Source: Bacteroidota bacterium (GTDB lineage: Bacteria > Bacteroidota > Bacteroidia > UKL13-3). Taken from it: a stretch of DNA of 64,000 nt. Below the pieces are notes generated by a model. The model was not told where the DNA came from, made no database searches, and saw nothing but the letters and a program-made list of their open reading frames with translations. Below, in pieces: positions 19,315 through 33,197 of the stretch; position 1 is the first letter of the stretch; every line of letters starts with the position of its first letter. The stretch lies in contig JANYDU010000001.1 of assembly GCA_025359805.1 (NCBI GenBank), positions 15,421 through 79,420 on the forward strand, read 5' to 3'. Position numbers and translations under genes: made by a program.

Positions 19315-22300
19315 TTATTTTACCTCACGGTTTCCAATAATTAATTCGATAGTTCCATGTCTATGAATATGTAATCCTGAGCGTTTTTTTATATCAACCA
19401 AATAAACATAAACACCCTCACTTGCTTCTACACCTTTTTCGTTTTTTCCATTCCAATTAAATTTTGGATCAGTTGATTCAAAGAATAAATTTTCCCAACG
19501 GTTATAAATCCAAATATGAAATACATCGCACTTTTGTGATACTCCTCTTATCTCAAAAAAGTCATTCACTCCATCTCCATTTGGAGTGAACACATTTGGA
19601 ATAATTACTTCTTCAATAGTATCTCCGTCTATATAAAATGTTTTTGTAACAGAATCTGCACATGGGCTTCCGGGATTACTGATGAGGGTAATATTAAAAT
19701 AATCGGTTCGTGGATATTGATGAATTGGATTTATTTCTGTTGACGAATCGCCATCACCAAAATACCATTTATATGGAACGTTTGAAGTGAGCGAAGTGAA
19801 ATTATTAAAAGTAACTTTTAAAGAGCAACTGTCTCTTCCAATTCCAAAATCAGCTCCCGATTTGGAGTTCACATTAAAAGTTTTGGTAATACTATCTAAT
19901 ACGTTACAAGTTGCCGAATCAACTACAACTAATTTTATTTTTATAGTGCCACTATTTAAAATGGTATCGGTTAAATTTCTTGACGTGTCTTTAAAAATAT
20001 CATTCACAAACCAATAAAAATGTTTGCCCACTTTAGTTTCATTTTTTGTATGTAAAATGAATGGAGCACATAATGTAGAATCAGTTAAACTAAAATTGGC
20101 TTTCGCAATATTTGAAGTGCTATCATAAGTAAAAGTTATACTGCTTGTATCGGCACAAGGAGTATTATCTCCACTAATTAAAATGATGGTATAAGTTCCA
20201 TTTTTGTAAGCGCGAGGTGGAGGGTCTTTTTCATAAGTTGACGAGGTTCCATCACCAAAATACCACGTGTAATTATCTATAGGAATATTTTGATAGGTTG
20301 TACTTTTATTAATGAAATGAATTAATGGTCCGCAGGTATCTCTGTAAATTTCAAAAATGCTTTTTCCTGAAACATTTACAAAAATATTTTTTTGAATGGA
20401 GTCGGATTTATTGCAAGTATTACTATCCGTAATCACCAATTTTATTTTGTATAAATTAGGATTGACAAGTGTATCAAAATAATTAAAATTTGTTGATTGA
20501 AGTAGCCCATTTTTATACCAATAAAAATGTTGCCCCAAATTGTTTACTGTGTTTTCACAAAATAAAAATTGCGGAGCACAACCTACTAGAGGATGTAAAA
20601 TAAAGTTTGAAACAATGTAATATCGATTGCTGTCATAGTCAATAACGCTAAATGCTGTATCTGAACAAAAGCTTCCAGGGTTGGTAACCAGCTTAACCAA
20701 AAATAGATTATTTGATAGGTATTTATGAGTAGGATTTTGTTGTGTAGATGTGTTGCCATCACCAAAATGCCAAACAAATTGATAAGGCGTATTATTATAT
20801 GAAGTAGAATGATTGAAGAATTGAAATGTCCGTCCGCAGGTATCCATAACATAAGAGAATGCTGCATGTGTAGTTGATTTAGTTTGAAGGGTTTGTTGAA
20901 CGGAATCTATTTTTTTGCAACTCACAGAATCCTTTACTATTAATTTTACCACAATTGTTTTTTCGGTTGTAAACGAATCCATAAATTGAAGTGATGAGTC
21001 TTTTAAAACATTATCATAATACCATAAAAATTTCTTTCCATTTATTGATGAATTGGTGAAGGTAACCGTGGAAGGTAAACAGGATTGAAGTGGATTAATA
21101 CTCATTCTTGCATACAGCATTTGAGGAGTTATTTTTACATTAATTGTGTCATAAAGTGTGTCTGTACAAAGTCCTCCAGGTTTGCTAATTAATTTAACAA
21201 TATAGTTTCCTGAATCTTTATAAATATGTATTGGATTTTTTTGTGATGAAGTATCTCCATCGCCAAAATACCAAAAATAATTTTCTGTGTCTCCAGGGTA
21301 AATTATAGATTGATTGACAAAAGAAGTTTTAAAAGAACATGTATCAAATTGAACTGCAAATTTACTCTGAACCGAGCCTTCAATAGTTAGCGTTTTAGTA
21401 ATGCTATCAATAATGATACATCTTGATGAATCAATAGCGATCAGTTTAATACTATGAGTTCCTTTTGTTGGAAATAAAAATTGATAATTCATTGTGGTGT
21501 CTTTAAATATTCCATCCACATACCAGTAATAATTTTTTCCATTATAGCTGTTATTGGTAAAGGAAACGTTTCTGTTTGAACAACCTGTGCGGGGAGCAAT
21601 AATAAAATCGGCAATCACGGCATCATTAATTCTAAAATCTAATTTAACACACACTTCACTGCATCTTGGACTTTTATTTTTAGGGGAATAAGAGCCTGAT
21701 GTGGTAGGAAAATTTCCATTCTTACCTTTATCACAACTTGCACAAATAGCCTGATAAATTACGCCACGTTTATCAAATCTACTTGTTCCGCCATCCACAT
21801 GATCGGGGTTTCCGTTTTCGCCTAAAAAACTCGAATAAAATAAACTCTTGGCATCTTTTTTTAAAACGAATAAAAAGAAATCGCTACCATCAGTTGTCTT
21901 TTGTAAAGCATCAGCAGTGCATGTTAAATTTGTTGTGTTGCTATAAAAATTTGTTTTATAAAGAGCTTTCCCATTTCCATAATCATTTACTTCTCCACCC
22001 CAACATGATGCATAAATATTTCCGCATGCATCTACAATAAATGCGGTAGGAGAAATGGTATTATTTTGTATTCCATTTCCAATAACAGTTGAGAGTTCAA
22101 GTGTGTCTAATTCTTTACTAAACCTCGATACATATAAACTTCCTTTTGCATTACTATACACATTATTTGTTACCGGCATCGAATCAAAATTTTGCCCAAG
22201 CACATTTACCTTTCCTTTTGTATCTAATTTTACAAAATACGTTTGATCATATTTTGCACTTCCCCAAAACATAGAACGCATTAACGTACTTCCATTGGCA

Positions 22301-23928
22301 CTAATTTTTGCGATAAATCCATCAACTGGTCCACCAGAAAATGTATTTTTATAAACACCAGTTGTTATCGGAAAATTTCTACTTTGAGTACCGCCTGCTA
22401 CATAAATATTTCCTTGCACATCAATATCTAAAGAATAGGCAGCATCATGATTGGATTCGCCTAAATAGGACGACCAAATTAATTTTTTTAGTGAACTGTC
22501 TAACTTAAAAACGCAAGCTTCTTGCCCGCCCTTATTTGTAGTTTGAAATGCTCCTGTAGTAGTTGGAAAATTGCTAGAAGAAGTTGTTGATGCAATAATA
22601 ATTTCATTGGCATCATTCACTTGCACTTCGCCTCTAAATTCATCGGCATAATTCATGCGTAAACTGTCGGCCAGCATAATCCCATCCCATCCAGAACCTC
22701 CAATATAGGTAGAGCCAACTAAAGCTGTTCCATCACTATTAAATTTTGTAACAATAATATCTGATTCAGTTGTTGTACTATTAAATGTTGTATCAAAAGC
22801 AAAATGTGTTATAGGAAAATTAACAGAATGTGTACTTCCAAAAACAATCAATCGGTTTTGTTTATCAACAATTAAACTATGCGGATATTCATCTCGATTT
22901 CCGCCTAAATAAGTTGCATAAATGAGTGCCGAGCCATCATTATTATATTTACTAACTGAAATGTCGCAGGGGAAACCATTTTGTGGCCATTGCCCAACAC
23001 CGCCATTATAATTTTGTTGAAACGCCCCCGCTGTTGCAGGATATTTTAAACTATTTCCATAATCAGTTACAATTCCGGCAATGTAAGCGTTACCATCATT
23101 ATCATAGGTTGCCGTGTATCCAAAATTATCAACTTGTGAACCGGAGTATGTTGAGAAAACCACAACAGGGTCGATAATTATTGGAAGAGTTGTGTTATAG
23201 TTTCCCATTTTAAAACTCAATACATTTTCTTCCAAAACAAACTCGCACAATACTTCTTTTTGCATGCCTTCAATTATTTGATAGGCGTATGGTTTCATTT
23301 CTATATAATCAAATACACTGGTTTTAACGTATAGTGCTCCAGCTTTTAAACTCATATTATCGGCTCCATCATATTTCATTTTTATAGATGAAGTGTTGAT
23401 ACCGGGCTCAATAATAAAATCATATTTTAATGAACCGGTTTCTTCTTGCGTATAAAATTTAAGATCTACTCCTTGATAAATATTTTTAATAGAAACTTCT
23501 GAATAAGGTTTCACACCTGATTTCCATCGTTTGTTATCATTGCCTAAAAAATAATTGTAATACTGCGTAAAGGGCTTTTCTGAAAGAGGTTTGGCATTTA
23601 TGTTACTGTTTAAAAAACTAATTCGTAGCGCATGCCCTTTTACGGTAAAAGGTTTGTGATAATTTTCAATAGGGCGAGGATGCTTTACCAAATTTGCTAC
23701 ATCATCTTTATCATAAAAAAAATATTGTAACGCATTTTTTTCGATATATAAATGAGCATTAAATAAATTCACTGAATACAAAGAAGGATTATCCCACTGC
23801 CCTTTGTTTTCAATAAATTCAAATTTTTTGGTTGAAGTGTTTTGAGGATTATGCGCAGTTATTACACCAATGCAAACAAGCATCAACAACAAAGAAAAAA
23901 ACAAATATGGTAAATGGTTTTTTTTCAA
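19315..23928 (-). CDS. 1537-aa T9SS type-B cargo: N-terminal FIENKGQ domain, SBBP beta-propeller repeats, tandem PKD repeats, gliding-motility (CHU_C) tail
   Basis: FIENKGQW; repeated YSTY.GG..D..Y...VD; repeated W.FGDG.TS...NP.H.Y; C-terminus IPNVFTPNGDGVNDFF..IYNRW..WNG..GVYVY. Confidence 0.9.
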   Translation of the reverse strand: MKKNHLPYLFFSLLLMLVCIGVITAHNPQNTSTKKFEFIENKGQWDNPSLYSVNLFNAHLYIEKNALQYFFYDKDDVANLVKHPRPIENYHKPFTVKGHALRISFLNSNINAKPLSEKPFTQYYNYFLGNDNKRWKSGVKPYSEVSIKNIYQGVDLKFYTQEETGSLKYDFIIEPGINTSSIKMKYDGADNMSLKAGALYVKTSVFDYIEMKPYAYQIIEGMQKEVLCEFVLEENVLSFKMGNYNTTLPIIIDPVVVFSTYSGSQVDNFGYTATYDNDGNAYIAGIVTDYGNSLKYPATAGAFQQNYNGGVGQWPQNGFPCDISVSKYNNDGSALIYATYLGGNRDEYPHSLIVDKQNRLIVFGSTHSVNFPITHFAFDTTFNSTTTESDIIVTKFNSDGTALVGSTYIGGSGWDGIMLADSLRMNYADEFRGEVQVNDANEIIIASTTSSSNFPTTTGAFQTTNKGGQEACVFKLDSSLKKLIWSSYLGESNHDAAYSLDIDVQGNIYVAGGTQSRNFPITTGVYKNTFSGGPVDGFIAKISANGSTLMRSMFWGSAKYDQTYFVKLDTKGKVNVLGQNFDSMPVTNNVYSNAKGSLYVSRFSKELDTLELSTVIGNGIQNNTISPTAFIVDACGNIYASCWGGEVNDYGNGKALYKTNFYSNTTNLTCTADALQKTTDGSDFFLFVLKKDAKSLFYSSFLGENGNPDHVDGGTSRFDKRGVIYQAICASCDKGKNGNFPTTSGSYSPKNKSPRCSEVCVKLDFRINDAVIADFIIAPRTGCSNRNVSFTNNSYNGKNYYWYVDGIFKDTTMNYQFLFPTKGTHSIKLIAIDSSRCIIIDSITKTLTIEGSVQSKFAVQFDTCSFKTSFVNQSIIYPGDTENYFWYFGDGDTSSQKNPIHIYKDSGNYIVKLISKPGGLCTDTLYDTINVKITPQMLYARMSINPLQSCLPSTVTFTNSSINGKKFLWYYDNVLKDSSLQFMDSFTTEKTIVVKLIVKDSVSCKKIDSVQQTLQTKSTTHAAFSYVMDTCGRTFQFFNHSTSYNNTPYQFVWHFGDGNTSTQQNPTHKYLSNNLFLVKLVTNPGSFCSDTAFSVIDYDSNRYYIVSNFILHPLVGCAPQFLFCENTVNNLGQHFYWYKNGLLQSTNFNYFDTLVNPNLYKIKLVITDSNTCNKSDSIQKNIFVNVSGKSIFEIYRDTCGPLIHFINKSTTYQNIPIDNYTWYFGDGTSSTYEKDPPPRAYKNGTYTIILISGDNTPCADTSSITFTYDSTSNIAKANFSLTDSTLCAPFILHTKNETKVGKHFYWFVNDIFKDTSRNLTDTILNSGTIKIKLVVVDSATCNVLDSITKTFNVNSKSGADFGIGRDSCSLKVTFNNFTSLTSNVPYKWYFGDGDSSTEINPIHQYPRTDYFNITLISNPGSPCADSVTKTFYIDGDTIEEVIIPNVFTPNGDGVNDFFEIRGVSQKCDVFHIWIYNRWENLFFESTDPKFNWNGKNEKGVEASEGVYVYLVDIKKRSGLHIHRHGTIELIIGNREVK

Positions 23929-24013
23929 GCCCTAAATTAATTCGACTAAATTAGTGTTTAAAATGTATTCATGTGCAGTGGTTAAGAAACTTTTAAGAAA
24001 TTTTAATACCATT

Positions 24014-24040
24014 GCAACCTTACCAAAACAAATTCCGTCT
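24014..24040 (+). promoter_or_regulatory. Putative ECF-sigma autoregulatory promoter GCAACC-N16-CGTCT
   Basis: AAC-containing -35 and CGT-containing -10 at ECF-typical spacing, about 25 nt upstream of GTG 24065. Confidence 0.6.
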
Positions 24041-24064
24041 GAACCTATAATTCATAAAATAAAA

Positions 24065-24610
24065 GTGGATAAACAACTTGAGCTGTCGTTAATAAAATCT
24101 TGTGTGAGTGGAGATGGCAAAGCTCAAAAGCGATTGTACGATGAATATTCAAAAATGATGTTTGGTATATGTTTACGATACAGCAATTCAAAAGATGATG
24201 CGAAAGATATTTTGCAGGATGGCTTTATTAAAATTTTTACCAAGATAAGCCAGTATAATTTTTCAGGGTCATTTGAAGGATGGATGAAAAGAATTTTTGT
24301 AAATACTGCTCTTGAACATTACAGAACAAATAAAAATCATATGAATCAAAGTGATGTTGAATATGCTAATAACAATCCACATCATGATTATACTATTGAA
24401 AAAATATCACAAAAAGAAATATTAAATATGCTTAGTAAAATGCCTCCCGGATATCGTAATGTGCTCAACCTTTTTATTATTGAAGGATACTCGCATTCCG
24501 AAATAGGAGAAATGATGGGAATAAGTGAAGGTACTTCCAAATCACAACTTTCGCGGGCACGAATTATTTTACAACAAGAAATTATTAAACAGCAAAAAAT
24601 TAATCAATGA
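24065..24610 (+). CDS. ECF-type RNA polymerase sigma-70 factor
   Basis: AQKRLYDEY, DAKDILQDGFIKIF, FEGWMKRIFVNTAL, MPPGYRNVLNLF..EGYSHSEIG..SKSQLSRAR. GTG 24065 is preferred over the track start 23954. Confidence 0.95.
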   Translation: MDKQLELSLIKSCVSGDGKAQKRLYDEYSKMMFGICLRYSNSKDDAKDILQDGFIKIFTKISQYNFSGSFEGWMKRIFVNTALEHYRTNKNHMNQSDVEYANNNPHHDYTIEKISQKEILNMLSKMPPGYRNVLNLFIIEGYSHSEIGEMMGISEGTSKSQLSRARIILQQEIIKQQKINQ

Positions 24611-25542
24611 GCAGTATAAATAATATAGACGAACTGTTAAAAAACAGTTTTGATAACTTTGAGGCAACACCACCGACCGATGCTTGGAGTGCTATTCAGC
24701 AAGGTTTGCCCAATGCCAGTGTTTCTGGTGCCGAAACTACGGTATCAAATGCATCAACCATTATCAAATCAACAACTCTTGTTACAAAAATAGTATTGGC
24801 AATTGCTTCCATTACAACTATTACAGGTGTGTATTTTGCATACAATTATTTCGATAATCAATCAAATGAAAAAATCGTACAAACAGCTCAACAACCACTT
24901 GTTCAAGCACAATCCAATTCAGAAACAACTAAAATAGAAAACGCATCACCAGTAAAACAAAATATTGTAGCGCCATCTAATACTGAAATGAAAAGGAGTT
25001 CAGTTAAAAAAGAGGATATAAAATCAGCAAGTGAAAATCAAACTGTTTTACAAGAAAATATAGCTACAAATTCCGAAAATAATAAATCGGATATTCAACA
25101 ATCAAATTCAGAGAATAAAAAAATAGTAACAACTATTACTGAACAAAAGGGGATTCAAAATCAACCAAAAACTCAACCCGTTCAGCAATCAAAATCACGT
25201 AAAGATTATTTTGCAAGTGACGAAAAACAAATGTCTGCAATAACCAATGAAAATCAATATCAAAAGCCGAATATTCATAATGCAATAACTCCAAATAATG
25301 ATGGAGAAAATGATAGAATGATTATTGAAATTGAAAATGAATCATTGTATGATTTGAAGATTTATGATGCTGAAAATAATTTGGTTTTTGAAAGTAATAA
25401 TAAAGATAAAACTTGGGATGGAGTGGATATGAGATCAGGACAAATAAGTGAGGTAGGCCAGTATCAATATGTGTTTAAATATCAATACAAAAACAGTGAG
25501 AAAGTGCATACTACAAAAGGCATAATTTTATTGAACAGATAA
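24607..25542 (+). CDS. Putative single-pass anti-sigma factor with a low-complexity linker and a C-terminal T9SS type-B-like domain
   Basis: 4-nt overlap with the sigma gene. N-terminus IDELLKNSFDNFEATPPTDAWSAI; TM at about aa 62-82; Q/S/T/N/E/K-rich linker; tail IHNAITPNNDGEND..IYD..VF..WDG..GQYQY. Confidence 0.75.
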   Translation: MSSINNIDELLKNSFDNFEATPPTDAWSAIQQGLPNASVSGAETTVSNASTIIKSTTLVTKIVLAIASITTITGVYFAYNYFDNQSNEKIVQTAQQPLVQAQSNSETTKIENASPVKQNIVAPSNTEMKRSSVKKEDIKSASENQTVLQENIATNSENNKSDIQQSNSENKKIVTTITEQKGIQNQPKTQPVQQSKSRKDYFASDEKQMSAITNENQYQKPNIHNAITPNNDGENDRMIIEIENESLYDLKIYDAENNLVFESNNKDKTWDGVDMRSGQISEVGQYQYVFKYQYKNSEKVHTTKGIILLNR

Positions 25543-25655
25543 AAAAATTGAAAATATTAAATATTAATTATATGTTAGCGAATTCAATATCACTTAATAA
25601 AAACTTATCGGATAGGTTTTTATTAGCCATTAATAACCAACTAAACAATACTTAT

Positions 25656-28600
25656 ATGAAGCTTTTTCGACATGTGTTTATTTTCATTTTACTTTTAACC
25701 GGCACATCACAATTGTTTGCGCAAGGAACGATTGCACAGCCAGATACAATTTGTGATGGAGATCAGGTTACACTTACACTTAAGTCTTCGGTTATTAATA
25801 CAAGCAAAACAGTTGCTTATTATAAATTTTATTACGATAATACTCACGTAAACACTATGCAGGGTTTAGATAGATCTAACCCTTCTTATATATTTTTTAC
25901 TTGCCCTCCAGGAAATTGGAAAGGTTCGGCAAAAGTAGTTTATACAGATAGTACTTCAGATGATGGAGGTACAGTTGATTTTACAGTTTCGTATAGGCCT
26001 ATAGCTAATTTTTTACTAGATCCCGGATCAAATGATTCAGTGTGTTTTAATGGTGGGCATAATTCAGTATGTTTTATTAATAAATCTCTTCAAAACCCCC
26101 AAACGCCAAGCAATCCTTTAGTATCTTGTTTATGGGTATGGGGCGATGGAAATAAAGATAATATTTGTTCACCAGCTTTGGTTTGTCATTCTTATGCTTT
26201 TTTGAGTGCACTACCCTTTGATGTTACCCTAAAAATTACAGATTCAAAAGGGTGTACAAATGCAATTACAAATCCTCAGGACTCAACAGGAGGACAATCT
26301 GGATTGCCCACAGGTATTCATATTGTAGGCATCTCTAAACCCGATTTTAAATGGAAACAAATAAGCGGACCTTGTTTTAAATCATGTTACCGATTTACAA
26401 ATTTAAGTGCTGTAGCGCTGCAAAAAATTCAGTATTATCAATGGGATTTTGGAGATAAAAATTTGTGTGAAAGTTATTTTGAGCCAGACTCAAATCAGTA
26501 TACAGCGTTTGCTCCATTTTTGCCTCACGTTGCGCTATGTGATTCTGTAATTCATAAATTTGATTCATTGCAATATGATACAATTGTACATTGTTATTGC
26601 GATAGTGGAATTTTTAAACCATCACTAAAAATTATTGATTTGTTGGGTTGTGCAGATAGTCTTCGTAAAACACCACAAAATGCAGGTGGAGCTTTATTAC
26701 CTCAAAACATAAAATTCTATTTTGATATTACTTCTGCAAAAACAGATTTACAGGGAAGTAAAGGTCATGTATTAGCGGATTCGGTTTGTTCGGGAAGTGG
26801 TAATGGTGCTACTATTTGTTTTAATCAAACGCCCGTCTCTTTTGCATCAACAGGAACGGGAGATTTTGTTTGGAATTTTGGAGATCCTAATGATCCTAAC
26901 AACAAAAACTTAGACTCCATGACTTGGAATCCTTGCCATAAATATTCAGGAATGGGTTCGTTTTTCCCAGCTTTAAAAATTAAAAATATTTGCCCTGATA
27001 CTACTTTCAATTATTATGCAGCAAGAGTAGTTGGTCCATATAGAAGATATTTAGATACTTTGCCAGATGATCAAAGAGATTTAATTGATGGCTTAATATC
27101 AAATTCATCGCCTCAATTTATTTCTACAGGTTGGCTTCCTAAAAATGCTATCGGCTTTGATGGGCAAGTACTTGTGCTAAATAATTTGGATAGTGTGCAA
27201 TTGTCTTTTGTTGGACTCGTGGGCAACTTTGCAAAGTATAAAATGATTGGTAGAAATAAGTATTATGGAGATAGTGCTTATTATTTTAATACGTTGCCAT
27301 TTACTTCACCATATTCTTCAGATTTAATTCCGCCTGATTCTATACCTGTTTATAACTACTCCATTGCAGGTGCTACGCCACCGATTTTAAATATAAAAAG
27401 CACTCAATTACCAGTTTCGTGGGAAACAGGAAAGGTAGGAACAGTTCCGGTAGCTTGCGCAAGCATAATTGGGTCTAGTGCTAAACATAAATATTACTTC
27501 AATAGTATTTTAGATACCAATGGAAATATAGCACCTAAAATTTGGTATAAGTTTTCTCGGAGTTATAATTATGGTGTAAGAATTTTAGGACCTTCGGCAT
27601 CTATCGAGTCAGGTACATGGGTTCCAGCAGGAGCTCCCCCAGTTAATATTGATGCAAAACTAAAAAATCAATGTGGACCAAGAGATACAGTTGATTTTGT
27701 AAATGCAACTAATTATGAAATAAATAATCCGGTAGCACCCAATAATTACAGAGGAGGATACAAAGCTAGAAATGTTTGGAGACGTTGGGATTTTGGTGAT
27801 ATTTACGCACCTCAATGTACCTCTTTTACCAAGCCTCATGTTGGTTGGCCTGCTATTCATAATATTAATACCTATTCATATTATGTTCAAAAGGATAATA
27901 AGAATGATTACCTTTCAATACGCGATAGTTTGGTTACAGTAACTGATACCGTTAGAATGTGGAATGATGCCCTAGAACAATATATGAATAGCGATCACTT
28001 CTTTATTAGTAATGGTCAAACCTACCCTGGCAGAAGAAATTGTAATTTCTCTCATGATACTTTACCAAGGCATCATTATCCAAATTGGGATTCTGTTTAT
28101 TTATGGTACAGATACGGACATGATTTTATGCCTTGGGATACCGTTAGATTTACAAATGACCCAACCAAAGCTCCAACTTCTACCCTATACAGAGTAAAAG
28201 CTTGGGATTCAACATGGTGGGGTAAAAAAGTTTACTTAAATATTAATACAGGTGAATGGTCACTCAAACAAGATTCTGCTAAAATGTATAACTATATTTC
28301 GGGCACTTATCCTAAGTATAACCCTTGTACAGGTAAAACTACTATAGGTTATAATTTTGCTACTTCTACAACTGGCATTTGGGTAAAATGGCCTCGTATT
28401 GATACCATGGCTACAGGTGCACAACCTCAAGATTTATGGCCAGGAAACAGCCGTACAAATGGAATAGTGGCAACCCTACTTCCTGATCCTTTTCAAATGG
28501 TTTTGGGCGGTTATTATTTAATTAGTGGAGTAACTATTGATACCGTTACTCATCATCCCTCACTATTTTATACTGATCAGGGAAAAACAATTTTGCTCCC

Positions 28601-31600
28601 AAGCGGTACTACAATTTTACCTGGAAGCAATGAAGATTTGTTTGAATACACTTTCCGAAGAATAATACAGAAATGTTTAACGGTTAAATTACTATTAACA
28701 GATAGTTTAAATAATGAATCCTCTGACCCAGGTAGCGGCAGTAACGCAGCCTGCCCAGATTTATCACAACTTGATATTTGGGATTGTACCAGCGAAGCAC
28801 AAGTTCAGCTGGTATTAGGAAAGCCAGATGCAAGAGGTATGGGTAAAAAAGGAAAAGAATGTCCAGGAAAAGATAAACCAGGTTCTCCTGCGTTGGTATT
28901 TAATAATGCAAATGGATATCCTGGTGTTCAGCTTAATTGTGGACGAACTTCTATTTGGATTGATATTGATTCACTTGCCGATCGTATGGATAATACACCT
29001 TGTTATTTGGATGGATTTACTTCATGGGGAATAGGTACTGTTGGAACTCAATTGGCCCCTGGTCCTGGAACTAATACTACACCAGGAGGATTAACGCGTA
29101 ATACATTTTATACTTTATTAAACTGGAATCCAAATCCTCCAAGCCCTTGGACGGGACCAGGTAGCAACGTATTGCAATATCACATGGGCGGAAATGCAGG
29201 TACACCACCAGCGGCTGATGCATTGCAGGGCTTTGTTACCGTTGGTATTTATTTAGGAAATGGGCAAGCGGATAGTACAATCAATGTTTGGGAATCAAAT
29301 TATAAAACAAATACAACCAATGCTGGCGGACCTCTGAGAGACTGGTTAGGGCGCTTTTATTTTTTCGATGCAGCTTCTCAACAAAATATACCATATACTT
29401 ATCAAACATTGCCTTTGGTTGATTCGGTGGTAAATCAAATGACTCCGCCTCCGGTTCCTATCCCAAATGGTTGGGTAGATGATAGCATTGTTTTTAATTA
29501 TGCTTTTAACAAAATAATTGCAAAAAAACCAATGATAAGATACCCTGCTGTTGGCACAACTCCAGCTATTTGGGATACGATGTATTCAATAGAATATTTA
29601 GATCCTAATTGGCCTAATTGTATGTCGGATACGGTTTGGTATCATAACTTTTGGCATATTAAAGATTTAGATCCAACTTTTGCAAAATCACCGGCTGAAT
29701 TGGCTACACTCAGAGAACGCTATGATACCATGTGGGTGGTATATAGAGATAGTATTCAAGATAGTGTGAAAACTACAGTATGGAGTTGGGGTGATAATAC
29801 CGCAACAATTGATTCATTTTATTATGCTGGCATTGATACCACGAATGATTTCTTTGTTCATGGGGTAAGGCGTGTACGTTATAATATGGACTATACCAAT
29901 GGTTTACCAGGAGTGTTAATGGATTCTACTTTATGGCCTTGTGGAGTGTATGGTACACGACAATTTAAGGAACCAATGAGGTATTATAAACGATATTATG
30001 ATTCGATAGGATTTATAGCTCCTGATGTATTAATGTTATTGAATAAATGTCCTATTCCAGGTGGGCATGATGGTAATGGTCATTATCAAGATTCTATTGG
30101 TTTACCTACTATTTTTACTATTCGACAAAAAGATACTATACTTCTGCCTAAAGGATATTTAAATTATTTTGATATTATTCAAATTATTGCCCCCGATTCG
30201 ATTGTGTTAAAGAGTAGAGATGCAAATGTCAATTTGCCAACTATTAATATTAGTAAGAATGACACGTCTAGATTGCCTCAGCCTTATCATAACATCATTA
30301 ATATTATAGGGTCAATTTTGCCTGATACTATTATATATACAATAACACATTTGGATACACACGCACCTGTAAATGTTCATATAAGCCGTTCAGATTTTAA
30401 TACATTACCAAGTAATCGTAACCGTTTGTTGAGTCCAATTGGATTTATTGGAACTGATACTATTGTATTCAAAAGTGTGTGTCCGAATCCTTCTCATTAT
30501 GATTCTAAATGGTTCCCATATAGCAATTATTTTGATACATTATTTTTAAGACTTAGGGATACATTAATTTATACTCAATACAGAACAATCGATACTGCTT
30601 TAATGATGCTTCCTGTTTCTCATCAATACTTTAAAACAAGTTGGGAAATGAATCCTTCTGGAAAAGTAGCTGGAGCAACAATAACGCAAATGAACAGTTT
30701 TATTGAAAATACCCAAAAATGCCAGTATAGCACAGGTAATGTAATTACTGTAGGTGTGATTGATACGTTACATATTTATGGTGGAGATTGGGTAGAAGAT
30801 ACCATATTCTGTAAAAGTGAAACGGTTCACTTCGTTGATTCGGTTCGTTATTTCCGTTATGATGATCAAATTACAGATGTTCCTAATTTAAATTTTGGAC
30901 GTAGTAGAACAGTTATAACTTATATTGATACACTTGGAATTCCATATAGATCTTGGCAATTTGACTCTACAGATTTTTGGGCTCGGGATGCCAATAACCC
31001 AAGCGACACTCTTGTTAACCCGGGATTTACAACAGGATTTTTATTAGACTTTAAATATTTTGAAGGTAAATGGACTAATTGGGACTTAAATCAGGCAACT
31101 GCAACAATTACACATTTATCAGGACCTTATGGACATTGGGATGTGGTATTACGTGGAGGTTCGGTTCCTGTTGTGGCACCTACAGGAGTGAGTGATTCCG
31201 CAGGATTAGGTTCAAATGTATATCCGGGTAAAATTATTTACTACCCAGCCGGTTTAGGTGGATTAGGTACTGATGGAGGTTTATATGTTTGGGATTTCTT
31301 TGGAGGATGGATTCCTGCATACGCTCCAGTTACTATCGATTCATTAAAAACAATATCAGATTCAGCAGGTCTTGTTAACCCTACATCAGGAAGAACACTT
31401 ATTTATAATAATGGAAAAGGTGCGGTTAAAAGACAAGGGATGTATTATTGGAGTGGAGGTCAATGGGTGTTTATATGTAATAGTCCATACACTTCATTCC
31501 CATACTTTACCCATAAACTATATTGGGATTTTGGTGATGGATCACCAATATATGTTGGGATTAGACCATCACATAAATATGAAATTCCTGGCAGATTTAA

Positions 31601-33197
31601 AGTTACCATGGTGAGCCGTGATAGTATTGGCGCATTTGATACTTGTATTGCCCATGTTGAGGTGATGAAACCAGTAGCCGTTCCTCACGTTTTGTTTCCT
31701 GTAATTGGTTGTAAGGATACAGCCTCATTTGCAGATTCATCATTTGTACTTACTGGAGTGGGAGCTAATAACACTATGGATAAAGTAGATTCTGTTTTCT
31801 GGTGGTTTACGATTAAGTATTCATATCCTAATGGCTTACAAGGTGCAGATACTATGCAATACCGATCCATCTTGCATAATCCAACTTGGTATTATAGTAA
31901 GAAGGGGGTTTATAAAGTTAAATTAGCTATAGTAACAGTGCAAGGTTGCCGAGATACAGCTACAGATTCAATAGTTGTTCAAGGTCCTCGACCGGCCTTT
32001 AAGCTTATTACGGATACAATTGGATGTAAACCATTTAGGGTAGGTATATGGAATATGGCGGATTCATTTGATATGCGGAGTCTTTCAGATACTCCAACTT
32101 TATCAACTATTATTTATTGGACAGAAAGCAGTACACAAACTATTATTTCTGGAAGAAGAGATACCGTATGGCATGTATATCCAGATACGGGTTACTTCGC
32201 TATATATGCAGCCGGACGTGATGCGGATCAGTTCCATACACCAACTTGCCCAATTACTTATACACCAGATTCTTCAGAAGGTGGTGGTTTTGAAAGGCTG
32301 ATTTACATTACGGTTAAGGAGCCTTATCGTGCGAAAATTACAAGCGTTGATACTGTTTGTGTGAATCAATCATTTACTGTGAAAAATACTTCTGATTCGT
32401 TGAGCTATTCTGGTTATAGATTTGAAAGGCGTAAGTTCGATACTAATCTTTCATTTATTGATGGTATACAAAAATTTGGAACGGCACCTCTTATTACCAA
32501 GTTTGATACTATTGGAAGGTATAAGATTATTTTATTCCCTGATAGTTTCCAATCTACTGTTCCTTATCAAGCAAGATGTGCTACACAAGATACGATAACA
32601 GTTACAGCACTTAAACCAAAAGCCATTTTTGACACTTTGGGATCATCTGCTCCTTCTTTTGTATTCAATAATCATTCTATTGCAGCAGATTACTATAACT
32701 GGGTAATTTTTGAGAAAGATGGAATTACTCCACGTAGTGATGGAAAGGCAACTGTATATCCTCCAAACATTGATTGGAAATATAATTTAGGATTGGATAC
32801 TGGAACTTATAAGGTTTGTTTAACAGCCTTTAAGATTATTCCTCCAAACCCATCTACTGACGAGTCATGCCCTGATTCGGTTTGTAAAATTATAAACTAC
32901 ACTTACGAAACGCATATTATTATTCCAAATGTGTTTACCCCTGATGGGGATGGTCATAATGATTTTTATAAAATTGATATTTTAGGAGAATTAAAATATG
33001 ACTTAACCATATTTAATCGTTGGGGAACTAAAGTATTTGCCAGTGATAACAAGGATAATATGTGGAACGGGAAAAATTATAATGATGGTTCTGATTGTTC
33101 AAGTGGAACTTACTTCTTTGCATTTACTTACAAATTAAAAGGAAGCAATGAGGATAAAACAGTTCATGGAACAATAACCCTTATTAAACCAAACTAA
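25656..33197 (+). CDS. ~2510-aa Cys-rich PKD-domain surface protein with T9SS type-B (CHU_C) tail
   Basis: Signal peptide from ATG 25656 (MKLFRHVFIFILLLTGTSQLFAQ); scattered W.[WF]GD PKD signatures; ends IPNVFTPDGDGHNDFY..IFNRWG..WNG..GTYFF. Confidence 0.85.
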   Translation: MKLFRHVFIFILLLTGTSQLFAQGTIAQPDTICDGDQVTLTLKSSVINTSKTVAYYKFYYDNTHVNTMQGLDRSNPSYIFFTCPPGNWKGSAKVVYTDSTSDDGGTVDFTVSYRPIANFLLDPGSNDSVCFNGGHNSVCFINKSLQNPQTPSNPLVSCLWVWGDGNKDNICSPALVCHSYAFLSALPFDVTLKITDSKGCTNAITNPQDSTGGQSGLPTGIHIVGISKPDFKWKQISGPCFKSCYRFTNLSAVALQKIQYYQWDFGDKNLCESYFEPDSNQYTAFAPFLPHVALCDSVIHKFDSLQYDTIVHCYCDSGIFKPSLKIIDLLGCADSLRKTPQNAGGALLPQNIKFYFDITSAKTDLQGSKGHVLADSVCSGSGNGATICFNQTPVSFASTGTGDFVWNFGDPNDPNNKNLDSMTWNPCHKYSGMGSFFPALKIKNICPDTTFNYYAARVVGPYRRYLDTLPDDQRDLIDGLISNSSPQFISTGWLPKNAIGFDGQVLVLNNLDSVQLSFVGLVGNFAKYKMIGRNKYYGDSAYYFNTLPFTSPYSSDLIPPDSIPVYNYSIAGATPPILNIKSTQLPVSWETGKVGTVPVACASIIGSSAKHKYYFNSILDTNGNIAPKIWYKFSRSYNYGVRILGPSASIESGTWVPAGAPPVNIDAKLKNQCGPRDTVDFVNATNYEINNPVAPNNYRGGYKARNVWRRWDFGDIYAPQCTSFTKPHVGWPAIHNINTYSYYVQKDNKNDYLSIRDSLVTVTDTVRMWNDALEQYMNSDHFFISNGQTYPGRRNCNFSHDTLPRHHYPNWDSVYLWYRYGHDFMPWDTVRFTNDPTKAPTSTLYRVKAWDSTWWGKKVYLNINTGEWSLKQDSAKMYNYISGTYPKYNPCTGKTTIGYNFATSTTGIWVKWPRIDTMATGAQPQDLWPGNSRTNGIVATLLPDPFQMVLGGYYLISGVTIDTVTHHPSLFYTDQGKTILLPSGTTILPGSNEDLFEYTFRRIIQKCLTVKLLLTDSLNNESSDPGSGSNAACPDLSQLDIWDCTSEAQVQLVLGKPDARGMGKKGKECPGKDKPGSPALVFNNANGYPGVQLNCGRTSIWIDIDSLADRMDNTPCYLDGFTSWGIGTVGTQLAPGPGTNTTPGGLTRNTFYTLLNWNPNPPSPWTGPGSNVLQYHMGGNAGTPPAADALQGFVTVGIYLGNGQADSTINVWESNYKTNTTNAGGPLRDWLGRFYFFDAASQQNIPYTYQTLPLVDSVVNQMTPPPVPIPNGWVDDSIVFNYAFNKIIAKKPMIRYPAVGTTPAIWDTMYSIEYLDPNWPNCMSDTVWYHNFWHIKDLDPTFAKSPAELATLRERYDTMWVVYRDSIQDSVKTTVWSWGDNTATIDSFYYAGIDTTNDFFVHGVRRVRYNMDYTNGLPGVLMDSTLWPCGVYGTRQFKEPMRYYKRYYDSIGFIAPDVLMLLNKCPIPGGHDGNGHYQDSIGLPTIFTIRQKDTILLPKGYLNYFDIIQIIAPDSIVLKSRDANVNLPTINISKNDTSRLPQPYHNIINIIGSILPDTIIYTITHLDTHAPVNVHISRSDFNTLPSNRNRLLSPIGFIGTDTIVFKSVCPNPSHYDSKWFPYSNYFDTLFLRLRDTLIYTQYRTIDTALMMLPVSHQYFKTSWEMNPSGKVAGATITQMNSFIENTQKCQYSTGNVITVGVIDTLHIYGGDWVEDTIFCKSETVHFVDSVRYFRYDDQITDVPNLNFGRSRTVITYIDTLGIPYRSWQFDSTDFWARDANNPSDTLVNPGFTTGFLLDFKYFEGKWTNWDLNQATATITHLSGPYGHWDVVLRGGSVPVVAPTGVSDSAGLGSNVYPGKIIYYPAGLGGLGTDGGLYVWDFFGGWIPAYAPVTIDSLKTISDSAGLVNPTSGRTLIYNNGKGAVKRQGMYYWSGGQWVFICNSPYTSFPYFTHKLYWDFGDGSPIYVGIRPSHKYEIPGRFKVTMVSRDSIGAFDTCIAHVEVMKPVAVPHVLFPVIGCKDTASFADSSFVLTGVGANNTMDKVDSVFWWFTIKYSYPNGLQGADTMQYRSILHNPTWYYSKKGVYKVKLAIVTVQGCRDTATDSIVVQGPRPAFKLITDTIGCKPFRVGIWNMADSFDMRSLSDTPTLSTIIYWTESSTQTIISGRRDTVWHVYPDTGYFAIYAAGRDADQFHTPTCPITYTPDSSEGGGFERLIYITVKEPYRAKITSVDTVCVNQSFTVKNTSDSLSYSGYRFERRKFDTNLSFIDGIQKFGTAPLITKFDTIGRYKIILFPDSFQSTVPYQARCATQDTITVTALKPKAIFDTLGSSAPSFVFNNHSIAADYYNWVIFEKDGITPRSDGKATVYPPNIDWKYNLGLDTGTYKVCLTAFKIIPPNPSTDESCPDSVCKIINYTYETHIIIPNVFTPDGDGHNDFYKIDILGELKYDLTIFNRWGTKVFASDNKDNMWNGKNYNDGSDCSSGTYFFAFTYKLKGSNEDKTVHGTITLIKPN

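Follow-up and report, generated by a model that had tools for sequence, protein, structure and literature searches.

A predicted anti-sigma factor ending in an altered type-B T9SS sorting domain is linked to giant cargo genes in Bacteroidota

Introduction

Why would the presumed regulator of an extracytoplasmic function (ECF) sigma factor end in a domain resembling the sorting signal of secreted surface proteins? The question is raised by a stretch of 64,000 nucleotides (hereafter the window; assembly GCA_025359805.1, contig JANYDU010000001.1, positions 15,421 to 79,420 of the forward strand) from a metagenome-assembled Bacteroidota genome of 2.47 Mb with 33% G+C and 84.5% completeness. In the window, the gene of an ECF sigma factor is followed by that of a 311-amino-acid (aa) partner protein, whose C-terminal domain (CTD) is of the type-B kind carried by type IX secretion system (T9SS) cargo. 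A preliminary description of this DNA had regarded the partner as an anti-sigma factor tethered to the inner membrane, which might couple the transcription of giant surface proteins to secretion capacity, and had suggested a survey of how often ECF partner genes end in CHU_C, the Pfam model of such CTDs. Here, we followed up these proposals by computational analysis. A sigma factor and a single-pass partner with an altered T9SS tag, located next to a giant cargo gene, form a real and widespread family.

Results

The partner gene (24607..25542, + strand) begins where the stop codon TGA of the sigma gene (24065..24610, + strand) overlaps its ATG at 24607 (ATGA), which indicates translational coupling. 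CHU_C (residues 222-308 of 311) was the sole Pfam match of the partner. For residues 1-220, no Pfam or NCBIfam match at E < 0.1 was obtained except a chance match to ExbB, and the known anti-sigma domain models (ZAS/RsrA, RskA and FecR) gave no match in these scans. Seven full-length homologues with 37-81% identity had the same architecture, with the first 32 residues almost invariant and the linker freely variable. The sigma and partner genes are flanked by two genes for giant type-B cargo proteins, a divergent one of 1537 aa upstream and one of 2549 aa downstream. Since the same four-gene layout was found in many genomes at 26-41% protein identity, a chance arrangement was excluded.

The most conserved part of the partner is its N-terminal module (residues 1-38; 24607..24720, + strand), the putative cytoplasmic sigma-binding part, which reads INNIDELLKNSFxxFEATPPxDAWSxIQQG and holds 22 of the 52 invariant columns. 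A Protein Data Bank sequence search with this module gave no match. Distant matches of its profile were sigma-adjacent proteins of 440-620 aa ending in OMP_b-brl_2, and comparison of the module with the N-termini of these proteins by hhalign gave a probability of 98.4% (E = 6e-15) over residues 1-38. Such proteins recall the Dma family (Pardue et al. 2024, PMC10927553), in which an ECF21 sigma factor is accompanied by a protein with a sigma-binding N-terminal region, followed by a transmembrane (TM) helix, a disordered linker that spans the periplasm and an outer-membrane barrel. Experiments showed that the N-terminal region binds the sigma factor in Dma1 and in B. fragilis Reo (PMC10927553; PMC13088901). 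The homology of the module to the OMP_b-brl_2 partners therefore points to an anti-sigma factor of the Dma type in which a secretion tag takes the place of the barrel. The partner is very probably an anti-sigma factor, given that no other part of it is conserved as strongly as the module, that an orthologous ECF sigma factor always precedes this module and that the module is homologous to Dma-type N-termini. Some relatives (among P0012, P0040, P0044, P0047, P0052 and P0112) carry 3-6 tandem copies of a ~30-aa FxxFEAxPxxxxWxxI unit before the TM helix, so that the sigma-partner module appears to be a repeatable short motif. Sigma/anti-sigma fusion proteins were sought among the relatives as a Rosetta-stone test, and none was found.

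The distribution of the family was surveyed with a profile of the N-terminal 85 residues, which retrieved 411 clusters at 50% identity from 1.84 billion representatives. Among the best 142 of these clusters, 108 had CHU_C by Pfam, 19 had PKD and about 8 had an outer-membrane beta-barrel. With a custom hidden Markov model, a CHU_C CTD was detected at the end of 118 of 153 N-module proteins, mostly best matches of the 411 clusters. The order of the window's genome consists of one family with 17 genera; the gene was present in 96 of its 119 genomes, mostly once per genome and encoding ~300 aa. Only one other CHU_C-ended copy was recovered from 400 genomes sampled evenly across the phylum.

The partner contains one hydrophobic segment (approximately residues 57-80; 24775..24846, + strand) with a Kyte-Doolittle maximum of 1.75 at residues 57-75, which is predicted to be a single TM helix. 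Throughout the 118 CHU_C-ended proteins, the helix begins at residue 47-70, further inside than a normal signal peptide would be, and the net charge of the 15-residue flanks favours an N-in orientation in 94 of them. Because the helix starts behind the conserved module and the flank charges favour N-in, the segment was taken for a signal-anchor that places the CTD in the periplasm, and this N-in/C-out topology is strongly inferred. No conserved AxA-type site was detected after the hydrophobic segment in the 118-protein family, for which a dedicated signal-peptide predictor was not used. In the AlphaFold2 (AF2) model built with a 7-sequence alignment, the segment was left unmodelled as a helix. 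An alternative start that would convert the helix into a signal peptide was considered and rejected, since only TTG codons 34 (a poor signal peptide) and 64 (inside the segment) were available.

These features bear on a plain explanation, in which the T9SS simply secretes the partner as a small cargo protein, the hydrophobic segment is cut off as a signal peptide and the adjacency to the sigma gene has no regulatory meaning. CHU_C does lie at the extreme C-terminus, and a close homologue is named 'gliding motility-associated-like protein' by one source. However, the hydrophobic segment lies behind a strongly conserved module that is common to the beta-barrel partners, the sigma gene is found upstream in every related locus examined, often with the ATGA overlap, and the real cargo neighbours have classical signal peptides. 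We consider a plain cargo highly improbable.

The helix is followed by a low-complexity linker (approximately residues 81-218, ~140 aa; 24847..25260, + strand), which is rich in Q/S/N/K/E/T, poorly conserved and apparently disordered, with a predicted local distance difference test (pLDDT) score of 24-40 and no other folded domain. In the 118 clusters, the distance from the helix to the CTD was at least 123 aa (median 154), and this region was E/T/K/S/N-rich with almost no aromatic residues. A tether whose length is kept without sequence conservation fits a periplasm-crossing spacer, as proposed for Dma.

The C-terminal part (25261..25542, + strand, stop codon included) is a type-B T9SS CTD-like domain. 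It matched PF13585 with 53.1 bits (cut-off 27) and TIGR04131 with 35.2 bits (cut-off 35), the match covering residues 222-310 of 311. It was modelled by AF2 as a beta-sandwich with pLDDT of about 90, and the best Foldseek matches included the T9SS substrate CTDs 8glk_D and 8gl8_D from translocon complexes and the PorZ entry 5m11. Five conserved motifs are described in type-B CTDs, each of which was required for secretion of the SprB CTD, and the signals are cited as 150-235 aa long (Paillat et al. 2025, PMC12618676). Type-B CTDs bind PorP/SprF-like barrels, and type-B cargo stays bound to them (PMC9143113).

The CTD of the partner is altered in one of its conserved blocks. At the position where the 2549-aa and 1537-aa neighbours read IFNRWGT and IYNRWEN, the partner reads IYDAENN, so that its NRWG block is D-A-E-N. 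An alignment of 118 partner CTDs with 27 cargo CTDs from the window's genome and the related loci was used for comparison. The R-W pair was present in 24 of the 27 cargo CTDs and in none of the 118 partner CTDs. Each position of the N-R-W-G block was conserved in 85-93% of the cargo CTDs, whereas the partner CTDs had no W and no aromatic residue there. Counted singly, W was present in 25/27 cargo and 0/118 partner CTDs, and R at the R-W position in 25/27 and 12/118, respectively. The PNxFTPNGDGxND, WDG and GxY blocks were kept in both groups, while the terminal GTxTLIR was kept in the cargo CTDs and weakened in the partner CTDs. The R-W contrast between the partner and the neighbouring cargo CTD held pairwise in all 24 loci compared, and the partner CTDs clustered apart from the cargo CTDs (3 label changes, compared with 25 in shuffles). 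Because R-W is lost and the region before the 90-aa core is disordered, the CTD of the partner is probably not handled like cargo and may still bind part of the machinery. Such a domain would be a natural separation-of-function variant for the needs of type-B binding and of translocation. A recent fusion or a pseudogene was ruled out by the existence of 118 CHU_C-ended proteins, by the separate clustering of their CTDs and by the lack of extra likeness to the CTD of the own neighbour.

The sequence-level claims of the preliminary description were thus all borne out. It had given the partner a short N-terminus, one TM helix, a linker and a CTD at 25261-25542 without any other fold, which agrees with CHU_C as the only Pfam match and a linker pLDDT below 50. 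The missing NRW(G) motif, noted there against the two neighbours, proved to be missing throughout the family. The anti-sigma identity became very probable through the conserved module, the constant orthologous sigma factor upstream and the homology to Dma-type N-termini, and the membrane tether was preferred to a cleaved signal peptide from the position of the helix and its flank charges. The suggested survey gave the 118 of 153 proteins and the 96 of 119 genomes reported above.

The genome of the window contains three sigma/partner pairs of the same ECF clade. In addition to the pair described here, one pair (C43:18248-20514), also with an ATGA overlap, has a 557-aa partner with a variant of the N-terminal motif, a TM helix, a linker, PKD and SdrD_B-like domains, and this partner ends in a type-A T9SS CTD (PF18962, 37.8 bits; cut-off 27). 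The partner of the other pair (C54:18147-20295) ends in OMP_b-brl_2 and is classically Dma-like. With type-B, type-A and barrel ends in one genome, modules directed to the outer membrane look interchangeable on the anti-sigma scaffold.

This observation is relevant to the alternative that the CTD functions as a signal for export. It would be carried across the outer membrane by the T9SS and anchored by a PorP/SprF-like barrel, so that the partner, like Dma, would span both membranes and sense events at the surface or in the outer membrane. The shared Dma scaffold (N-module homology and sigma clade), the tether length kept at 123 aa or more, the surface-protein-like appearance of the C43 paralogue with its type-A CTD above the Pfam cut-off and the lasting attachment of type-B cargo to PorP-like proteins (PMC9143113) would all suit export. 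Against it, R-W is absent from every partner CTD, while SprB CTD secretion required all five type-B motifs; type-B signals are reported to need 150-235 aa, while the region before the 90-aa domain of the partner is disordered; a hydrophilic tether across the outer membrane would have to remain inside the translocon; and PorA tethered to the inner membrane is not carried to the surface. We therefore judge export of the CTD improbable.

Linkage was analyzed in 9 named loci, 18 phylum-wide loci, 29 order-wide loci and 20 fetched regions. Wherever the N-module was detected in a related locus, the gene directly upstream, usually with an overlap, encoded an orthologous ECF sigma factor. A CHU_C cargo gene of 1100-2550 aa followed the partner gene on the same strand in all 24 CHU_C-type loci with enough flank. 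The start of this cargo was located in 20 of the 24, where a classical signal peptide was found, 65-120 nt after the partner stop codon in all but one located locus. In most related loci a large divergent gene was present upstream, which encoded a CHU_C protein wherever it was seen whole, some being cut off by locus ends. The same cassette layout as in loci L003 and L004, with an almost identical sigma factor, was also observed in CALRIT020000014.1 of a genome labelled Vulcanococcus limneticus, a cyanobacterium, and is probably a binning contaminant. In a locus of another family (G363), the CHU_C-ended partner has PKD before the CTD and is followed by two CHU_C cargo genes. In a weakly resolved tree, the sigma factor of this locus groups with a barrel-linked sigma factor and not with the clade of the window, which suggests that acquisition of the CHU_C end may have occurred repeatedly.

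The sigma protein matched Sigma70_r2, Sigma70_r4_2 and ECF in Pfam and TIGR02937 with 96 bits. Its open reading frame (ORF) is listed from 23954, and the most likely true start is the GTG at 24065; this GTG start is conserved in 8 loci, and the AAAAGTG start context and the length of 181 aa are conserved as well. In the sigma tree, one clade (SH-aLRT 93) unites the window sigma factor with those adjoining OMP_b-brl_2 partners, and the CHU_C-linked sigma factors form a fully supported subclade inside it. Seven other ECF sigma factors of the window's genome were included, and all fell outside the clade of partner-linked sigma factors. From its clade membership, the sigma factor probably belongs to group ECF21. 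About 22 nt upstream of its start codon lies an ECF-type promoter, TGCAACC-N16-CGTCTGA (24013..24042, + strand), which from its likeness to the ECF consensus would be recognized by the sigma factor itself. In 8 aligned loci, as well as in several more distant ones, the sigma gene is preceded by the pattern GCAAC(C)-N16-17-C(A/G)TCT.

The ORF of the downstream giant opens at TTG 25548, and the signal peptide MKLFRHVFIFILLLTGTSQLFAQ starts at ATG 25656. Because the signal peptide begins there, ATG 25656 is the probable true start of this gene (25656..33197, + strand). Its product has PKD and CHU_C domains, the latter at 71 bits with an intact NRWG. The divergent giant (19315..23928, - strand) has the domains DUF7948-PKD-CHU_C. 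Altogether, the genome has 15-20 CHU_C proteins, and it encodes SprA and three PorP/SprF genes, the PorP/SprF copies being located on other contigs.

Discussion

In this study, a family of very probable anti-sigma factors was found in which a Dma-type N-terminus, a predicted signal-anchor and a long tether are combined with a type-B CTD that lacks R-W. We propose that the 38-residue module would hold the sigma factor in the cytoplasm, that the single helix would anchor the partner in the inner membrane and that the disordered tether of at least 120 residues would cross the periplasm. The R-W-less domain would then act as a tethered pseudo-substrate. From the periplasmic side it would dock on the machinery of type-B cargo, which may be the SprA translocon or a shuttle of the PorP/SprF type, but its release to the surface would not follow. 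This contact, or the force and proteolysis ensuing from it, would inactivate the anti-sigma factor, and the freed sigma factor would fire its own promoter at 24013-24042, from which read-through would raise the expression of the downstream giant type-B cargo. For this whole chain, from docking of the pseudo-substrate to release of the sigma factor by engagement or cleavage, we estimate a probability of about 0.45. Whether the partner has some physical link to the T9SS appears evenly balanced, and which T9SS component it would meet, which way the signal would run and which genes would form the regulon are weakly inferred. It is doubtful that the giant is expressed only when secretion capacity exists. 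In a bolder formulation, the partners would make up a large class of anti-sigma factors, so far unrecognised, that serve as checkpoints across the envelope and whose R-W-less and unsecretable type-B domain probes the T9SS; the grip of an energised translocon or of a free PorP/SprF shuttle would stretch and cut the tether and free the sigma factor, so that the 2500-residue adhesin is made only when it can be exported. We offer this formulation as speculation that is unlikely to hold in full.

Several observations weigh against the proposed chain. The topology is not clear from K+R counts alone (1.42 versus 1.33), and the comparison behind the likeness to Dma covered the sigma-adjacent OMP_b-brl_2 proteins. 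That the R-W block is one of the published type-B motifs A-E is read from the alignment. No PorP/SprF gene is present in the cassette or elsewhere in the window. The strict ECF promoter pattern occurred once in the 2.47-Mb genome, before the sigma gene only. Directly 3' of the partner stop codon, a promoter-like element TTGAAAAT-N16-TATGTTAGC(R)AA (25548..25580, + strand) is conserved in nearly all related loci. As the giant has this conserved promoter-like element, control of it by the sigma factor rests on adjacency and on the lack of a terminator. Finally, the partner CTDs diverge faster than the cargo CTDs (mean identity of 39% versus 57.5%), and they do not co-vary with their neighbours, the identity of a partner CTD to the cargo CTD of its own locus being 38.7% and to those of other loci 37.9%.

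The promoter data allow the regulation of the two giants to be assessed separately. A terminator was sought between the anti-sigma and giant genes and none was found. The element TTGAAAAT-N16-TATGTTAGC resembles the housekeeping promoter of Bacteroidota (-33 TTG / -7 TAnnTTTG), and the downstream giant, whose signal peptide begins about 100 nt further on, probably has a basal promoter plus read-through from the ECF promoter. A similar TAATTTAG box was observed on the reverse strand at about 23957-23964, before the divergent giant gene. Regulon searches across the 2.47-Mb genome with the strict and the relaxed motif identified no further regulon member; the relaxed motif gave 16 matches, compared with roughly 9 expected by a rough estimate, without a coherent gene set. 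The conserved ECF promoter, unique in the genome and located before the sigma gene, thus indicates autoregulation. The preliminary description had placed giant surface proteins under the sigma factor, and control of both giants was not borne out, with the ECF promoter only before the sigma gene and an own conserved promoter-like element for the downstream giant. Control of the divergent giant by the sigma factor gained no support.

The comparison of CTDs between loci also bears on a reading in which the partner CTD senses cargo. It would pair with the CTD of the giant, or compete with it for a periplasmic chaperone or shuttle, and a backlog would change the stability of the anti-sigma factor, giving feedback for a single cargo. 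One particular giant adjoins the partner gene in 24/24 loci, though the genome has many CHU_C proteins, and the partner CTD keeps four of the five conserved blocks. But the partner CTD has no locus-specific similarity to or co-variation with the CTD of its own giant, and the literature search provided no known example of type-B CTD-CTD recognition. Cargo sensing is accordingly improbable too, even if it stands first among the alternatives.

The faster divergence of the partner CTDs would also be expected if a CHU_C-like beta-sandwich had been co-opted as an ordinary periplasmic sensor of ligands or stress, its likeness to sorting domains being only historical. The loss of the most conserved cargo motif and a TIGR04131 score barely at the cut-off are in line with this explanation. 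On the other hand, the remaining cargo motifs are kept across the 118 clusters, a type-B cargo gene is linked without exception, a sensor in the inner membrane would need no long tether, and the parallel paralogues end in a type-A CTD and an outer-membrane barrel. We rate a co-opted sensor as improbable, slightly behind both export and cargo sensing.

If the bolder formulation is correct, the paralogues with barrel and type-A ends in the same genome would mean that in Bacteroidota a single anti-sigma scaffold is connected separately to three routes of outer-membrane traffic, namely the beta-barrel assembly machinery (BAM), the PorV branch and the PorP/SprF branch. A conserved, single-copy predicted anti-sigma factor with a modified sorting signal offers a direct, testable handle on the link between expression and secretion, for which the only described feedback is the PorA-PorXY-SigP route of P. 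gingivalis.

Compared with known type-B cargo (SprB, Fjoh_3952 and PG1035), the partner has the same CHU_C/TIGR04131 domain at the extreme C-terminus, with PNxFTPNGDGxND, WDG, GxY and a beta-sandwich. It differs from them by lacking a cleavable signal peptide and a passenger domain, by the absence of R-W in 118/118 clusters and by having no folded extension before the 90-aa core.

In the FecI-FecR-FecA system, as is predicted for the pair in the window, a single-pass anti-sigma factor holds an ECF sigma factor; the periplasmic end of FecR is believed to make contact with an outer-membrane barrel, and release in Fec is by regulated proteolysis. Unlike FecR, the partner has no FecR domain; no TonB-dependent transducer was found in the sigma/partner cassette when the genes of the window were inspected, and its presumed contact at the outer membrane would be a T9SS shuttle or translocon.

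The PorA-PorY/PorX-SigP pathway is similar in that a T9SS CTD serves for signalling and the signal finally reaches an ECF sigma factor. In P. gingivalis, the CTD of PorA binds to PorY within the periplasm and activates SigP (PMC7712824, PMC12152298), and it signals even when held at the inner membrane by a tether and not exported to the surface (PMC12152298). PorA is a free cargo protein, whose signal peptide is cleaved off and whose CTD is of type A, and it signals via a two-component kinase, whereas the partner is itself the predicted anti-sigma factor; and the regulon of the PorA pathway consists of T9SS component genes. The preliminary description had drawn parallels to FlgM and SecM, to which the analogy is looser than to Dma, FecR or the PorA CTD. 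The PorA CTD gives a precedent for signalling by such a domain.

The closest known relative is the Dma family (PMC10927553), with which the partner shares a Bacteroidota-only ECF sigma factor directly upstream, a short N-terminal region, one TM helix and a long disordered tether. Dma ends in an 8-stranded outer-membrane barrel, whereas the partner ends in a ~90-aa type-B T9SS domain; the Pfam scan gave no OMP_b-brl match for the partner, and its C-terminus was modelled by AF2 as a beta-sandwich and no barrel. The partner would accordingly meet the T9SS rather than BAM, and its cassette contains giant T9SS cargo genes, while Dma is found with NigD-type genes. The T9SS is not mentioned in either Dma paper (PMC10927553, PMC13088901), and our literature search found no paper joining anti-sigma factors with type-B CTDs or CHU_C. 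Of the 'new form' claimed in the preliminary description, which had left Dma unmentioned, the layout stands as undescribed in the literature searched, while the architecture is a variant and not wholly new, as Dma is its nearest relative. What is new here is a type-B sorting domain on a known Dma-type anti-sigma scaffold, and the Dma concept is thereby widened, the barrel being one of at least three apparently interchangeable ends directed to the outer membrane.

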